Source: Roseiarcus sp.
Lineage (GTDB): Bacteria > Pseudomonadota > Alphaproteobacteria > Rhizobiales > Beijerinckiaceae
DNA: 46,447 nucleotides
Direction of reading: 5' to 3'
Assembly (NCBI GenBank): GCA_035500275.1
Contig: DATJXI010000045.1
Location: 1 to 46,447 of the forward strand
Shown here in pieces: positions 33,996 through 43,393 of the stretch. Each line of letters starts with the position of its first letter. The first letter of the stretch is position 1. Both the position numbers and the translations under genes were made by a program. The notes under the pieces were generated by a model that did not search any database, was not told where the DNA came from, and was given only the letters and a program-made list of their open reading frames with translations.

Positions 33996-35501
33996 CTATC
34001 CATAGTGCCTGAGCCGCGGCCAGACCTTGTCCAGCGGCTCGCGCATGCCGCGGCAGAGCCACAGCGTTTGCGCCGATTCCTCCGGCATGCCGAGGGGGTT
34101 GTCGATCCAGCCGACCGGCTCGACCGAGCGGAATGTCTTGAGGTGGTCCTCGCGGCTTCCGCCGAGGACGAACACGACGCTTCCGTCCGCGCCGCGCGGC
34201 CCCCACAGGAAGTAGTTCTCGTGCGCGCTGACGACGGGCGGGCCGCCCCAGCGGGCGCCGAGAACGTCGACGGCCGCGGCCTCCCCATAGTTGCGGCCGA
34301 AGAAAACGGCCCTCGCCCTATCCTCGGGCGGCAGCGCCTGATAGGCCTTGGCCACGGCTTCCGCGATCTCCGGCCACCCGAACATGTCGGCGTAATACTG
34401 CGGCAGCGCGCCGAGCTTGAGCTTCTCGCCCGTGCCAGGCTTTATGCCAATCAGGCGCTGATATTCCAGGTACTGCGACACCGGCAGGATCGGCATGACG
34501 AGCGGGGCGGCTACGATGACGCCCACGATGACGAATGCGGCGAGCGCGGGTTTCGCGGCGCGCGGCAGCCAGGCCTCCCAGGCGACCGCGCCGCCCGCCA
34601 TGAGGAGCGGGTAGGCGGGCGCAATATAATAGGGGCGGCCCCGCCCGATGACCGCGGCGGCCACCAGGAAGATCCAGCTCACCGCGACCCAGCGCATGCG
34701 TGCGAACGGCCGCCAATGGGCGAAGGCCAAGAGCCCCGCGATCCAGACGGGCGCCGAACCCGGCCCCAGAAAGAGAATCTCCTGCCCGAGGAAGCTCACG
34801 GGCGAGAGCGGGATGTTCTTCTCCGCCGCAAGAACGGCGGTGTGGGCGACGAACGGCCAGCCGTTCGCCGCCTGCCAGACGAGGTTCGGCGCCACGATCG
34901 CGAGCGCGATCAGGGCCGCCGCCCACGGGCCCCAACCCGCGAGCAGGCGCCGCTGCGGAGTGACCAGGAGGCCGACGGCGGTCGAGACGAGAAACAGGGC
35001 GACCGTGTATTTGGCGAGGAAGGCGACCCCCGCGACGGCGCCCGCCGCGAGCCAAAGACGCGGCGCGTCGTCCCGTTCGGCTTTGATGACGAAAAGCGAG
35101 ATCGCGAGCCAGGCCAGAGGCTGCAGCGTGTCGGTCGTGAAAATGACGCCCGGGACCTGCAGCGCGCCGCCTGCGAAGACCGCCAGTCCGGCAAGCCAGC
35201 GGGCGTAAAGCCTGCCGCCGAGCACGCCCGCCGCAAACGCCGTCAGCGCAACCGTTCCCGCGGCCGCGAGGGCCGGTATGAGGCGGAGCCCGCGCAGGGA
35301 ATGGAAGATCGCTTCGGACGCCGCGGCGATGAGCGGGGTCAGCGGCGGCTGGTCGGTGTAGCCCCAGGAGGGATGGCGCCCGCAGACGATGAAATAGAGC
35401 TCGTCGCGAAAATAGCCGTAAGAGCCGTTGACCCAGAGGTGCAGCGCGAACGCGGCCAGGAAAAGGACGAGCTCGGGCCGATGGATGAGGCGGGAGACCA
35501 T
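33996..35501 (-). CDS. GT-C fold glycosyltransferase (ArnT/family 39-like) membrane protein
   Basis: YGYFRDELYF..CGRH..WGY.DQPPL, many TM segments, PNL.WQ, RPYY, NYGEA. Confidence 0.9.
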   Translation of the reverse strand: MVSRLIHRPELVLFLAAFALHLWVNGSYGYFRDELYFIVCGRHPSWGYTDQPPLTPLIAAASEAIFHSLRGLRLIPALAAAGTVALTAFAAGVLGGRLYARWLAGLAVFAGGALQVPGVIFTTDTLQPLAWLAISLFVIKAERDDAPRLWLAAGAVAGVAFLAKYTVALFLVSTAVGLLVTPQRRLLAGWGPWAAALIALAIVAPNLVWQAANGWPFVAHTAVLAAEKNIPLSPVSFLGQEILFLGPGSAPVWIAGLLAFAHWRPFARMRWVAVSWIFLVAAAVIGRGRPYYIAPAYPLLMAGGAVAWEAWLPRAAKPALAAFVIVGVIVAAPLVMPILPVSQYLEYQRLIGIKPGTGEKLKLGALPQYYADMFGWPEIAEAVAKAYQALPPEDRARAVFFGRNYGEAAAVDVLGARWGGPPVVSAHENYFLWGPRGADGSVVFVLGGSREDHLKTFRSVEPVGWIDNPLGMPEESAQTLWLCRGMREPLDKVWPRLRHYG

Positions 35502-35579
35502 GTGCGCGAGGTTGCCTGGCCTCAGCCCCGCGCGGCAATGCCGGGCGCGCAAAAATAATGACGCCGCCGAGGGCAAATC

Positions 35580-35888
35580 TCAGCCGGATATCGAAAGGCC
35601 AAGCCGGGCGCTGCGCAGGAGGACGGCCGCGTCCCGGACGTCGACCTCCTGAACGGATTGTTCGCCGGAGAAGGTGTAAGGGCGGCCAGTGATCGGGCCG
35701 CTCACCCGCATCTCCCCGCGCCCGGAATAGATGAGCTTCGCCCGGGAGACGCCAGGCCCCAGCGGAGTCAAATCCGGCGGGGCCGCCGCCGGTGAATTGG
35801 CTGGGCTTGCCTCCGGCGGGGAATATCTCGGAGTAGGCGCCGAGACTCCACCCAAGCGCCAGGCCGATCGCCTGCTACCGCAACACAT
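35580..35888 (-). CDS. Small hypothetical protein with N-terminal MCCG and C-terminal GPITGRPYTF motif
   Basis: GGAGG RBS; the start overlaps the upstream gene by 14 nt. MCCGSRR, Pro/Ala linker, then a compact domain (IYSGRGEMRVSGPITGRPYTF...VDVRDA). Confidence 0.8.
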   Translation of the reverse strand: MCCGSRRSAWRLGGVSAPTPRYSPPEASPANSPAAAPPDLTPLGPGVSRAKLIYSGRGEMRVSGPITGRPYTFSGEQSVQEVDVRDAAVLLRSARLGLSISG

Positions 35889-36210
35889 CGTCGGTTTCCT
35901 CCATGGAGTACGTATGCGCCGCCGCGCCGGCCGTGAGCCCTGTCAGACGCTCGATGAGGCAAGCTGCGCCTGAGAGGCCCAGCCAGGCGACGAACCAGGC
36001 CGCGGGCGACGACGCCACGAACAGCGCGAGCGGCGCCGCGACCCAGATGCTCATGCAGTTGAAGCAGTCCATCAAGCTGCCGATGAACCCTTCGCCCGCG
36101 CGCCGTCTGAGCCTGAAGATGACGTCCGCCGGGCCGTCCTCGTTCGCCAGCAGGTGCGTAACCCGCCAGGTTGCGAGAACGGCCAGTACGACTGTCAACC
36201 AAAGATCCAA
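35875..36210 (-). CDS. DUF1360-like membrane protein with CxxC
   Basis: TTG 36210 after GGAGG; LATWRVTHLL..EDGP...RLR...DCFNCMSIW plus further TM helices. The ORF track's longer 381-aa version is an off-frame extension. Confidence 0.82.
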   Translation of the reverse strand: MDLWLTVVLAVLATWRVTHLLANEDGPADVIFRLRRRAGEGFIGSLMDCFNCMSIWVAAPLALFVASSPAAWFVAWLGLSGAACLIERLTGLTAGAAAHTYSMEETDDVLR

Positions 36211-36224
36211 GCCGCCTCCGGACG

Positions 36225-38414
36225 CTATCCGGCGCGTTTCCTCAGGCAGAACGCAATCTGGTCGATGCGCGGCGGCCCGAAGCTTTGATCGCCGGTCGTC
36301 AGCAGGAGGTCCACCGACAGTTGAACGATGTAGGCGCAATCGGGCAGGTTTGCGAGACTCCAGCCCTGCGGCGTCGCGACGCCATACCAGTCGCCGGTCT
36401 CGGGAACCGGCGTCGGCAGCGTGAACGGATAAGGCCCGCCGGGCCCGATCATCTGGACGCTCACCGCGCCGAGGTTCGCGTGGGAAGCCGTGAACAGCAC
36501 CGTCAGCGAGTTCGAGATGCCGCCGCAGCCGTTCGCCTGCAGTTCCTGGATGTCGACCATGTAGACTGCGTACTCGTCCCCGAGTACGCCGCCGTCCCAC
36601 TCGGGATGATGGTTGACGTTGTGGTAGAGCGTGTTGTTGATCGCGACGACCTGGCAGGTGCCGCCTTCGTCGCCCGTCGCCGATCCGGATCCCCCCTTCC
36701 GAACGCGCATCCTGAGACCGAAGCAATGCGCGGTCGGCAACGGATGGTTCGCCGGATTTCCCGCCGAAACGCCGGTCTCGTCGGCCAGCGGGAACGACGG
36801 CAGCTTGGTGGAGATAAGATTGATCATGTTGCCGTTGAGGAAGATGAGCGGTCCCTGCGGCGTCTGGATCCAACCGTCCGCGGTAAACGGCGCGTCGAGT
36901 TCCGAGGCGCCCGCGTGAACCGCGATGTTCTTGTGCAATGGCGGATGCGGGAACGGTTGCGGAATCTCCTGGATGCCGATGACCGTATGGTCGATCCACT
37001 CCTTGGGGATTTGAGTCCATCCGCCGGACGCCGACGCGCCCGTGGTTACGCTGGCCCCCATGGCCGCGGCGAGCGCGGCGGTGCCATGCTGTCCACGCAG
37101 CACGGTCCAGGTCGTGGCGGCGACCGCGGTAACTCTGACGATCTCGTAGCCGCCGTTCGCGCCGCCGATGACGGCGTCAAACGGCGGGGCAGGGAAGCTG
37201 GCGCCGCTCGTCACGGTGATCGAAACGGCTGCGGCCGTAATCGCGGCGGCGAGCGTCGTCGTCGCGACGGCGATCGGCTGGTATTCGAACATGTATTCGA
37301 GCGGGGCGCCATCGTAGGTTTGGGTCAGAACGCCGTTCAGCCGCATCGTGCTGAAGAAGGCGCGGGTGTCGCTGTTCGTGAGACCTGTCGCGGGGAGGAC
37401 GCTGTCGATGTCCGCGTCATAGTCGTAACCGCCGATCGCGGTGAACAGCGGCACGAGGGTCGGCGGGCAGACGCAGATGCAGAAGAGATGACAGACTTCC
37501 GAGCATATCCATGCGCAGACCTGCCAGCAGTAGACACTGAGGCCGAAACGCTCGACGATGGCGCCATACGCTGCGCTGTCCTCGCGCATGACGGCGCCGA
37601 CGAGGTCGGAGAGCGCGCGCGCATCGCTCGAGAGCTTGCGCGCCGCGAGCGCAAATTCGCCCGCCTCCTCGATAGCCTCACGTCCGACGAGAATGGGGGG
37701 AATGCGCTGGCAGAGCGTCCGGCACACCCGCACGCAACGCCAGACGCAGATGAGGCGGCAAATGATCTCGCAGTGGGCGACAAGTTGGCCCCGGCTGATC
37801 GCCGACCGCAAGATCTCGCAGTCAAACGCCTCGGCCGCTTTGACGATATCCGCGAGCGAGCGATTGTTCGCCAGGACGCCGCGCAGTTCCTCCGCGTCGG
37901 CGCGGATGTCGAGCGCCGCGTCCGTCAGCGGGACTGGGCGCCCGGAGCAAACGACTTCGCAGACGCGCCGATAGAGGACGTAGCAGACGTACCGGCAGAT
38001 GAGGTGGCAGAACGGCTGGAGTTTGGCTTCGGCGATCGCCGATTGGTAGATCTCGGCGTCTCCGCAAGACACGGCGTCGACGATCCTGCGGAGCAGCTGT
38101 TCGTTCGATCCAAGCTGCACGATCGCCTGGGCGAATTGAGGCAGACCGGGAAATTCGGTGTTCGGGTTCAGCGGCCCGCACAATCGCCAGCACCGCAGCA
38201 CACAAAGCTTGACCCGAATCCATTCGCAGATGGGTTCGCAGTGCGGGAGCAGTTCGAGCCTTTGCAAGACCCAGCGTAACGCGTCGGGATCCTGGGATTC
38301 GAAAGCGGCGACCGCGGCGGCGAAGCCGCCGGTGTCCTTGGCGAGGCTGCCGACGGCTTCTGCCTGAGCGGCGAGATCGGCGACGGCGTTTTGCTGCAGA
38401 TTGAAATTGCTCAC
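36225..38414 (-). CDS. 729-aa Cys-rich repeat protein of unknown function
   Basis: GTG after AAGGAGG; coding-like codon use. Four ~79-aa repeats with Cys every fourth residue (aa 59-79, 136-156, 215-235, 296-316), then a beta-rich C-terminal half. Confidence 0.9.
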   Translation of the reverse strand: MSNFNLQQNAVADLAAQAEAVGSLAKDTGGFAAAVAAFESQDPDALRWVLQRLELLPHCEPICEWIRVKLCVLRCWRLCGPLNPNTEFPGLPQFAQAIVQLGSNEQLLRRIVDAVSCGDAEIYQSAIAEAKLQPFCHLICRYVCYVLYRRVCEVVCSGRPVPLTDAALDIRADAEELRGVLANNRSLADIVKAAEAFDCEILRSAISRGQLVAHCEIICRLICVWRCVRVCRTLCQRIPPILVGREAIEEAGEFALAARKLSSDARALSDLVGAVMREDSAAYGAIVERFGLSVYCWQVCAWICSEVCHLFCICVCPPTLVPLFTAIGGYDYDADIDSVLPATGLTNSDTRAFFSTMRLNGVLTQTYDGAPLEYMFEYQPIAVATTTLAAAITAAAVSITVTSGASFPAPPFDAVIGGANGGYEIVRVTAVAATTWTVLRGQHGTAALAAAMGASVTTGASASGGWTQIPKEWIDHTVIGIQEIPQPFPHPPLHKNIAVHAGASELDAPFTADGWIQTPQGPLIFLNGNMINLISTKLPSFPLADETGVSAGNPANHPLPTAHCFGLRMRVRKGGSGSATGDEGGTCQVVAINNTLYHNVNHHPEWDGGVLGDEYAVYMVDIQELQANGCGGISNSLTVLFTASHANLGAVSVQMIGPGGPYPFTLPTPVPETGDWYGVATPQGWSLANLPDCAYIVQLSVDLLLTTGDQSFGPPRIDQIAFCLRKRAG

Positions 38415-38837
38415 GACCGATTCCTCCTTGATGTCAGAACGCGCCTCTTGAGCGAGCGCTCGGTTATCAGGCCCGGCGTCGAGCCCGAACTATCTGTGAT
38501 CTTCAAATGCGGTCTGTATAAGCAACGCCACCTTTTTCATGGGGCGTCGATCCCGTTCAGGAAGTTAACGCTTTCCAAGTCCCTCGGCAAGCGAACTTCG
38601 ACGATTGGGCGTTCAATTTTCGCACTGACAAGACAAGCAGGTTTTTATTCTACAGCTTGTAACAAACAAAGCTTGTTGTTGCTACTTGAAGGCATTTGCG
38701 TTTTCTATTTCCGGGTTCTTGAATTGGAGAACAGAAAACCGCGCGCGCTGAGGGTCCTTTGAGGCGAACCTGCGGCGCCGGAGAGGGGTGGAACAACTCT
38801 TTGACCCCGGCGCGCGGCGGTCTTAGATGCTTTGCTC

Positions 38838-42393: not shown

Positions 42394-43393
42394 TCACCCC
42401 GAATAAAGCGCCGGCGGGTCGCGTAGGCGGATCGGTTCGGGCGTCCCGGTCTGCATGGCACGGACGCCGGCCGAGGTGACCACGGTCGCGACATAGCCGT
42501 CCCAGGCGCTTGAGCCGGCCGCGCCGCCTTTGCCCGCGGCAGGCTCGGAACTCGGCGTCGAACGCGGGCGCGAACACGCGCGCCAATCGACGGGCACGCG
42601 GCCGCTGAAGACGCCACGGCTCCGAAGCACGGCCGCACTCGTGTCGGCGAGGGCCACGGTGCCGGTCTCGCCTACGACCTCGCCGCGAATGTCGTAGCCG
42701 TAGGCGATATTGACCGACGTTTCGATCGCGACCAGCGCGCCCCCGCGCATCTCAATGAGCGTGATGAGCGGGTCGGACAGGGTTCCGCCGCGGCTGTTCG
42801 TGCGCGGGACCTTGACGGAGATCGCCGCCGGTTCGTCATCGAGCAGGAAACGGGCGATGTCGATGTCGTGCACCGTGCTGTCGGTCAGCGCCATATCCGT
42901 CGTAAAGTGCCGGGGGCGCGGACGCATTGCGGTTGACGCTCTGAAAAATGAGCGGCGCGCCAATCACGCCGGACACGATGGCCTGCTTCATTTCGCGATA
43001 TTGCGGATCGAAGCGGCGCATGAAGCCGACCTGGACGAGCCGCCGCCCGAACGCCGCTTCGGCGTCGAGGATCGCCGAGCAGTCCCGCTCGGAGTTGGAG
43101 AGCGGCTTCCCGCAAAACACGGGCTTGCCGGCCTTGATCGCGGCGAGCACGTAGCGCGCGTGCGTCGGGCCCCACGAAGTCACGACGACCGCCTGGACAC
43201 GCCTCGATTCGATCAGCTCCTCGCCCGCGGCGCACACCTGCGCTGCCGGAAGCCGCGAGGCGACGTCCTTGGCTTGCGACACGTTGACGTCGCTGAGCGC
43301 GACGACGTCGGCGCCCGCGAGGACGGTCGTCAGGCGCCGGATATGGTCCTGGCCGATCATTCCGACGCCGATGACGCCGACATTCAAACTCAT
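42394..43393 (-). pseudogene. iolG: myo-Inositol 2-dehydrogenase (Gfo/Idh/MocA) pseudogene
   Basis: GVIGVGMIGQDH, CGKP (normally CEKP), QVGFMRRFD, VHDID, YGYDIRGE, SAWDGY. Frameshift near the G5 run at 42912-42916 and further indels near 42585-42545. Confidence 0.85.

Follow-up and report, generated by a model that had tools for sequence, protein, structure and literature searches.

In a 46,447-nucleotide stretch of Roseiarcus sp. DNA (contig DATJXI010000045.1 of assembly GCA_035500275.1; the whole stretch is called the window), three adjacent genes, for a large Cys-rich protein, a small membrane protein of the DUF1360 family and a short protein starting with MCCG, were shown to form a conserved mobile insertion. 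The large protein is most likely leaderless, disulfide-laddered and structural. For the system as a whole, we see about an even chance that such a disulfide-locked structural protein is combined with an optional membrane cassette acting as a thiol oxidase and relay. The mobile system is real, and no description of it or of any DUF1360 function was found in the literature searched, which covered few subscription papers and excluded supplements. An earlier note, made from the sequence alone, had likewise proposed an undescribed thiol-rich unit of three genes.

In the large protein, 25 of 30 Cys lie within residues 1–316, at a strict i,i+4 spacing in four helices, and across 113 rows of the family alignment these stripe residues are conserved at 75–100%. 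The other conspicuous cysteines pointed out earlier, DCFNC in the membrane protein and the N-terminal MCCG, were also present. Co-variation of Cys was analyzed in 163 sequences, obtained from 286 profile matches through 222 near-full domains and an 85% identity filter. Six exclusive pairs were found: 199–314 (phi 0.98), 67–148 (0.94), 235–296 (0.92), 227–304 (0.90), 71–144 (0.86) and 79–136 (0.85); the best phi of any pair outside these six was 0.44. The residue numbers of five of the six sum to either 215 (repeats 1–2) or 531 (repeats 3–4), which implies an antiparallel helix register, and on this basis the remaining near-invariant Cys were assigned to two six-rung ladders, with 199–314 as the thirteenth pair beside them. 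The predicted pairs of the window protein are 59–156, 63–152, 71–144, 75–140 and 79–136 in the ladder of sum 215 (positions 67–148 being Arg/Tyr here) and 215–316, 219–312, 223–308, 227–304, 231–300 and 235–296 in repeats 3–4, plus 199–314.

Pair changes were then placed on a FastTree tree built without the Cys columns. Partner Cys changed on the same branch 56 times for the 13 pairs, against 5.1±4.5 expected and a maximum of 41 in 20,000 random pairings. Positions 67 and 148 shared 13 changes out of 16 and 13, and positions 227 and 304 shared 11 out of 14 and 13. Half-lost pairs were rare (a mean of 0.08 per sequence), and the replacements at lost pairs were Gly/Tyr, Arg/Tyr, Ser/Ser and similar. 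As a caveat on the pairing, 136 also shares 3–4 changes with 235 and 296. C117, conserved in 56%, has no partner. The one-to-one coupling and the purging of single Cys suggest structural disulfides, since bridged metal–thiolate clusters would be expected to couple more widely. Judged by this co-variation, the N-terminal domain is very probably stapled into two ladders, in which the Cys helices of repeats 1–2 and 3–4 would pair in antiparallel fashion through 12–13 disulfides, and C117 and C564 would be left free as possible inter-chain links. A disulfide-locked assembly had been the second option of the earlier note and gains from the pairwise co-evolution; the exclusive pairs speak against its first choice, storage of soft metal.

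The large protein could not be placed in a characterised family: no Pfam or NCBIfam family, catalytic or other, matched at E<=1, and only designed helical bundles matched among PDB sequences. Leads from the Atlas search all stayed below 0.9 (template modelling (TM) score <=0.23), and the plasmid search gave no match. Its homologs numbered 238 in the 90% library, and a set of representatives at 50% identity yielded 622 at E<=0.001; with the conserved stripe Cys and 495 homologs of the MCCG protein, these counts confirm that the genes are more than chance open reading frames (ORFs). The earlier note saw no signal peptide, in line with a crude heuristic (not SignalP) by which only 2 of the 113 family rows had an N-terminal hydrophobicity above 2.0. 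The AlphaFold2 model, made from the 113-row alignment and the library representative P0001, which is identical to the window protein except at residue 203, shows four repeats, each of three short helices and one 24-residue helix, followed by beta structure. The repeats are visible in the model and the MAFFT alignment; BLAST self-alignment did not detect them. Modelled alone, the ladder domain reached a predicted local distance difference test score (pLDDT) of 93.5 and a predicted TM score (pTM) of 0.92. Foldseek gave no match for it at E<=0.001, and among 48,161 chains none reached Z>=5 (best 4.7, a globin), helical models usually reaching ~14. The model suggests a possibly new fold, missing matches being no proof of one. 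The ladder domain, for which no fold match was found, documents the paired gain and loss of Cys in nature unusually clearly. Twin CX3C proteins and alpha-hairpinins also have antiparallel helices with disulfides between CxxxC motifs; they are tiny eukaryotic proteins with two rungs, in contrast to the two six-rung ladders within one bacterial domain.

The two halves of the family swap: ladder domains are found joined to other beta halves, and this beta half in turn is found behind transthyretin-like domains. The latter arrangement was seen in the large P0180–P0266 group and at L178 (G008:C26), and the same-genus copy had no DUF1360 or MCCG gene within 7 kb. In P0159, P0160, P0163, P0165, P0188, P0192, P0193, P0216 and L078, the ladder domain is fused to a different beta half of ~470 amino acids (aa). 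Residues 382–462 match PHROG 38058 (E 2e-9) and beta domains of phage tail fibres and virion decoration (GP4 8jov, Chi 8vjh, VP1 9in6 and JBD30 8rk3) at Z 9.9–11.5, the best being 8jov_1 (Z 11.5, root-mean-square deviation (rmsd) 1.7, 79 residues aligned). Unlike those domains, the segment is only an 80-aa optional insert, absent from many homologs (near-empty alignment columns) and found again at other positions in some. The large protein was also considered as a phage tail fibre or prophage gene and rejected, the match being confined to this insert and a viral context missing; the ladder domain occurred in none of 308 viral contig candidates.

A genome scan with the large protein (88 of 123 stretches confirmed) returned 73 loci in Alphaproteobacteria, Acidobacteriota, Actinomycetota, Chloroflexota, Gammaproteobacteria, Verrucomicrobiota, Deinococcus and Binatia. 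The distribution is patchy, with matches in 3 of 36 same-genus genomes, one of them a relative with a different architecture, and in none of 24 other genomes of the order. A DUF1360 gene was present in 42 of the 73 loci, downstream of the large gene in 39 and upstream in 3, and an MCCG ORF followed it in 38, completing the trio. The three loci with an upstream DUF1360 carry MGCGCG or MCCG peptides, and one locus stops at the contig edge. The trio recurs, as a check of gene neighbourhoods with or without the adjoining glycosyltransferase was meant to reveal; the GT-C glycosyltransferase, which the earlier note had counted as a possible member, occurs in none of the 73 loci. In G027 and G475, the matches to the GT-C gene and to lipA lie 288 and 184 bp apart with the trio absent, and this empty site in two relatives marks the trio as an insertion here and the GT-C gene as backbone. 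Together, the two results rule out the GT-C gene as part of the system. A prophage origin of the locus was also unsupported, since prophage genes do not recur around the 73 loci. In seven acidobacterial loci out of the 73 (L029, L032, L034, L036, L038, L042 and L044), a gene read as a Crp/Fnr-like regulator lies upstream.

The layout described earlier was found again on the sequence (Table 1). The three genes start with GTG (large), TTG (DUF1360) and ATG (MCCG), preceded by GGAGG at 8, 4 and 9 nt, respectively, the 4-nt spacing being short. A gap of 14 bp (36211–36224) separates the first two genes, the second and third overlap by 14 bp (35875–35888), and the GT-C gene starts (35501) 78 bp downstream of the trio. 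The G+C content is 0.41–0.56 across 38401–38800, compared with 0.58–0.73 within genes; third-position G+C of the three genes (0.83/0.85/0.75) is near that of flanking genes (0.84–0.89). No sigma-70 consensus was found upstream (0.5 expected), and terminator-like sites after the MCCG stop were at chance level (1 versus 2.6 expected). An imperfect inverted G+C-rich match between 35520–35535 and 38740–38754, one site at either end of the insertion, could be due to chance.

Table 1. Coordinates of the features discussed; positions without a locus name refer to the window.
Feature	Position	Strand	Description
Large leaderless protein gene	36225..38414	-	729 aa, 30 Cys; four helical repeats, then beta domains; AlphaFold2 pLDDT 93.2, pTM 0.78
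Cys-ladder domain	37461..38414	-	residues 1-318; four repeats of ~78 aa with a 24-aa helix at the end of each, Cys at i,i+4
Phage tail-fibre/virion-decoration beta domain insert	37029..37271	-	residues 382-462; optional in the family
Terminal Ig-like (immunoglobulin-like) beta-sandwich	36231..36608	-	residues 603-728; conserved C630, C693, C723; Z ~7 to Ig-like chains
DUF1360 membrane protein gene	35875..36210	-	111 aa, three hydrophobic segments, CxxC at residues 49-52 (36055-36066); candidate thiol oxidase
MCCG protein gene	35580..35888	-	102 aa; candidate dithiol relay or adaptor
AT-rich intergenic region	38415..38831	.	common to divergent lipA; presumed promoter region
GT-C (PMT_2) glycosyltransferase gene	33996..35501	-	host backbone, outside the system
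~440-aa partner gene	L049:5629-6951(+), L051:5630-6952(+), L063:5090-6400(-), L097:3521-4870(+), L120:1508-2728(+)		

The label DUF1360-like was confirmed for the middle protein, which matched PF07098 at E 4.9e-7 (30.1 bits, gathering cut-off 21) and DUF1360 clusters of the Atlas at 0.96. Its CxxC is kept in all 126 sequences, three phage proteins included, and also in the Bacillus and Streptomyces proteins examined; it stands at the start of a membrane helix, the hydropathy of the family peaking over residues 45–63. A PF07098 scan of 400 Pseudomonadota genomes gave two weak matches, both with stops. Like the family members of Bacillus and actinophages, the window protein scores above the curated cut-off and retains the CxxC and the first-helix Arg; unlike them, it represents a subfamily of its own, whose gene is coupled in translation to MCCG and stands behind large beta-rich clients. 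The MCCG protein consists of an N-terminal vicinal Cys pair with basic residues, a variable Pro/Ala linker and a conserved C-terminal domain of ~50 aa, without any Pfam, PHROG or PDB family. The small gene is real; the term microprotein used for it earlier is generous for a protein with such a domain. A ribosomal L9-N/YqbF-like fold, considered for the MCCG domain, found no match in PDB, PHROGs or Pfam. In seven alphaproteobacterial loci (L007–L010, L012, L013 and L037), the N-terminal motif is kept and the C-terminal domain is missing, and in L060 an MCCG-type C-terminal domain follows the large gene convergently (minus strand) with no DUF1360 match nearby.

A dedicated trio, as assumed in the earlier note, is not supported. 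In the plasmid search, DUF1360–MCCG pairs stood behind two different proteins of ~700 aa in Burkholderia sp. FERM BP-3421 and Ralstonia solanacearum PSI07. The Ralstonia type then served as the seed for a metagenome scan, in which 585 of 600 stretches were confirmed and 80 kept; an M(x)CCG ORF was present by pattern in 71 of these loci and a CC start by inspection in 7 of the other 9. The 69 upstream ORFs in 82 loci fell into clusters of 22, 10, 8, 8, 4 and 2 plus 15 singletons, counts that give no estimate of client frequency because of the seeding, and the profile of the ladder family matched only one of them. The clients read are leaderless Cys-rich beta proteins of ~700–790 aa, with GEVED-like or carboxypeptidase-regulatory-like pieces below the cut-off; N-terminal hydrophobicity exceeded 2.0 in 3 of 26 complete ones, two of which resemble start-site over-calls. 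A terminal Cys-aromatic-Leu-Arg motif is shared by 41 of the 69 clients. Hhalign comparison of the terminal domain of the window protein with four client clusters gave probabilities of 57%, 34%, 10% and 0.2% (control segments <0.5%), which supports common ancestry of the ends for some clients only. Hence, DUF1360 and MCCG make up an optional, generic mobile cassette serving several unrelated large proteins, and the cassette is missing at 31 of the 73 loci of the large protein. It marks a widespread, unannotated superfamily of leaderless proteins in soil bacteria. Clients L099, L102, L096 and L167 contain striking Trp- and Cys-rich runs and Pro-Asp-Pro-Pro motifs and are without an assigned family. 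Beside clients or the cassette, an unannotated Cys-rich protein of ~440 aa, Ser/Thr-rich in its middle and ending in a coiled coil, was observed in 3 of the 73 genome loci and 2 of 84 metagenome or viral loci. It had no Pfam or PDB match, was not found in the genome of the window, and looks like a putative beta-pore former.

Among 14 control genomes, DUF1360 was matched in B. subtilis only. In the exosporium cluster of Bacillus sp. N5-665, a DUF1360 gene (E 9.9e-37) follows cotO and is flanked on either side by a gene of the CotZ family. The products of these two genes, presumably exsY and cotY, contain 12 and 14 Cys and match PF10612 at E 2e-47 and 3e-42. The B. subtilis member may be YjcA, a name that no result ties to the family. 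The gene yjcA (BSU11790) adjoins cotV (BSU11780) and is controlled by sigma-E, as stated in the available text of PMC517825. According to the accessible part of PMC5434927, ExsY lattices are cross-linked by disulfides though assembled in the cytoplasm, and cooperativity was proposed to explain this in a reducing cell. The large protein resembles ExsY/CotY/CotZ (PF10612), reported there as Cys-rich, made in the cytoplasm and disulfide-locked, also in being leaderless, as judged here by the hydrophobicity heuristic, and one Bacillus cluster has DUF1360 between its two PF10612 genes. It differs from that family in the lack of a PF10612 match, in size (729 versus ~155 aa), in hosts that are not endospore formers and in its predicted ladder of helices within one chain, where those proteins form a hexameric lattice.

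A phage DUF1360 member matched 280 records, nearly all of them actinophages. The portal gene lies directly behind DUF1360 in all three actinophage records examined, and a Streptomyces plasmid carries its copy inside a head module. In HarveySr, an actinophage with DUF1360, there are hexamer and pentamer capsid proteins, and a 68-aa MGCNC peptide (DUF7196) is encoded nearby. Structural-protein Cys amounts to 1.02% in HarveySr versus 0.55% in D29, only a hint from one pair of phages; the first 30 kb of D29 gave no DUF1360 match. In two phage head modules with DUF1360, small peptides with two close N-terminal Cys and basic residues (L185:4742-4948 and L182:11631-11807) echo MCCG. As far as the available portion of the preprint goes, phage Jabs has a T=9 capsid in which hexons and pentons are built from separate proteins, with ~1,700 disulfides, spontaneous and catalysed oxidation being left undecided and the oxidant unknown. 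The DUF1360 protein gp7 of the B1 phage Aelin was linked to the capsid in the accessible text of 10.1101/2023.05.30.542743, and DUF1360 also appears in a table row of the part of PMC10551460 at hand.

Altogether, thiol oxidation for Cys-rich structures built in the cytoplasm is the best-supported role predicted for DUF1360 with MCCG; the thiol-redox function proposed earlier is a candidate role that fits the invariant CxxC and the gene company. We lean slightly towards a mechanism in which DUF1360 would cycle its CxxC, hand electrons on to quinone or another acceptor in the membrane and speed the oxidation of structures made in the cytoplasm. More tentatively, the vicinal dithiol of MCCG might shuttle between DUF1360 and the large protein, which is speculative. 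The cassette would help oxidation without being required, and the large protein would end as a tough disulfide-locked building block. Its beta/Ig half, which swaps between families and gains phage virion decoration domains, is by a small balance of probability the part that is exposed, adheres or forms a lattice in a putative coat, inclusion or particle, which the cell would build in its cytoplasm and set free by lysis or some non-Sec route. DsbB/VKOR with DsbA (role described in the accessible part of PMC5306230) and the cytoplasmic E10R–A2.5L–G4L relay of poxviruses likewise use a small membrane protein in which the CxxC lies where a hydrophobic helix begins, and DUF1360 likewise has a small dithiol protein and disulfide-rich clients as neighbours. 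In contrast to DsbB/VKOR, DUF1360 has three and not four hydrophobic segments and no second Cys pair, and the MCCG partner lacks a thioredoxin fold; DsbB/VKOR did not match its sequence, for which Pfam gave only PF07098 and PDB sequences nothing at E<=10. By analogy, the system is predicted to work like ExsY-type armour with a DsbB-like helper, as a member of neither family.

Several observations weigh against a disulfide ladder served by an oxidase. The six pairs were picked after the data had been seen, and the seven nearly invariant pairs deduced from the register add just 6 shared changes. Linear two-Cys (two-coordinate) metal bridges would possibly fit the pair co-variation too. Loci without the cassette keep 12.0 pairs (n=26) versus 11.2 with it (n=37), and 30 of the 31 genomes whose locus lacks the cassette had no match to the window DUF1360 anywhere, a negative limited by query distance and by the incompleteness of metagenome-assembled genomes, which most of them are, both positive controls being matched. 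The cassette is thus unnecessary for the ladder, or those hosts oxidise by other means. Counts in loop 22–48 of DUF1360 (3.3 K/R versus 4.1 D/E) are not decisive, by the positive-inside rule, on the side of the CxxC. Two other Bacillus records place DUF1360 beside glycoside hydrolase and acyl-CoA genes, not coat genes. The HarveySr–D29 comparison sets one phage against one, and Jabs is linked only through the capsid type of HarveySr, not being shown to carry DUF1360 itself.

The wider pattern raised a hypothesis that DUF1360 could be a fourth type of disulfide-forming membrane enzyme, working from the cytoplasmic face and using a vicinal-Cys peptide as its carrier. It would be the shared oxidant of three unrelated armours built in the cytoplasm, namely the Bacillus crust or exosporium, the virions of actinophages stitched by disulfides and, in soil bacteria, a large superfamily, so far unrecognised, of leaderless proteins that form coats or particles, including the ladder protein. 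We regard this generalization as doubtful, if conceivable. The available portions of two sources, PMC5434927 on the Bacillus exosporium and the preprint on the mycobacteriophage Jabs, pose as an open question how disulfides arise in structures that assemble within a reducing cytoplasm. Because DUF1360 is small, deletable and present in B. subtilis and laboratory actinophages, the question is directly testable.

It is rather unlikely that the ladder is real but forms by itself, cooperatively or after lysis, with DUF1360 as a membrane anchor or a small export or lysis pore and MCCG as an assembly adaptor without redox catalysis. Clients without the cassette do keep their pairs, cross-linked ExsY crystals arise in the E. 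coli cytoplasm and are explained by cooperativity in the text available of PMC5434927, and in phage morphogenesis blocks DUF1360 occurs as a small multi-pass protein. Against this reading stand the CxxC, invariant in the 126 sequences and in the Bacillus and Streptomyces proteins, and the presence of other membrane proteins in these phages and of a separate holin-like gene in the B1 phages.

Storage or detoxification of soft metal (Cu(I), Ag(I) or Hg(II)) by the N-terminal domain, with one ion per Cys pair delivered by DUF1360 and MCCG, appears improbable. Csp1/Csp3 copper storage proteins are four-helix bundles lined with Cys, and the domain resembles them in its four Cys-bearing helices, CxxxC motifs and at least 20 Cys. 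CC and CxxC are common metal motifs, the 25 helical Cys come without a signal peptide, and two-coordinate S–M–S sites would likewise co-vary pairwise. Yet the exclusive 1:1 pairs, the purging of single Cys and the repeated joint gain or loss of 67/148 fit disulfides better than bridged thiolate clusters. Unlike Csp1/Csp3, the protein has 16 helices, i+4 stripes winding 200 degrees round each helix, exclusive pairing and a large beta half; no Csp family matched it in Pfam or NCBIfam at E<=1, and none appeared among the best 50 fold rows. Furthermore, no metal-handling gene family recurs among neighbours at the 73 loci, and other clients carry scattered Cys in beta domains.

Slightly less probable still is a released, disulfide-hardened effector or receptor-binding subunit, interbacterial or anti-predator, delivered in some loci by the 440-aa partner. 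The patchy, mobile and domain-swapping family, the adhesion-type phage inserts, the Cys-rich partner adjacent in some loci and the helical-plus-beta layout with weak Foldseek rows to Cry and S-layer proteins are all compatible with it. These whole-chain rows have TM scores of only 0.08–0.10 with an rmsd of ~30, a disulfide-stapled bundle would be poorly suited to opening into a pore, the partner, whose pore character is putative, had no family match and was not found in this genome, and no immunity-like neighbour recurs at the 73 loci. Least credible is a reductase or isomerase role of DUF1360/MCCG, keeping client Cys free or reshuffling them until assembly: the CxxC motif gives no direction and pairs are slightly fewer with the cassette (11.2 versus 12.0), but a reducing cytoplasm needs no added reductase for proteins made there.

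The DNA of the locus is present in wetland metagenomes, and no RNA dataset with this DNA was among the matches listed. Elsewhere in the window, one oxidoreductase, which we take to be Gfo/Idh/MocA-like, is apparently split across two frames (42836–43393 and 42394–42963, minus strand), possibly by a frameshift.

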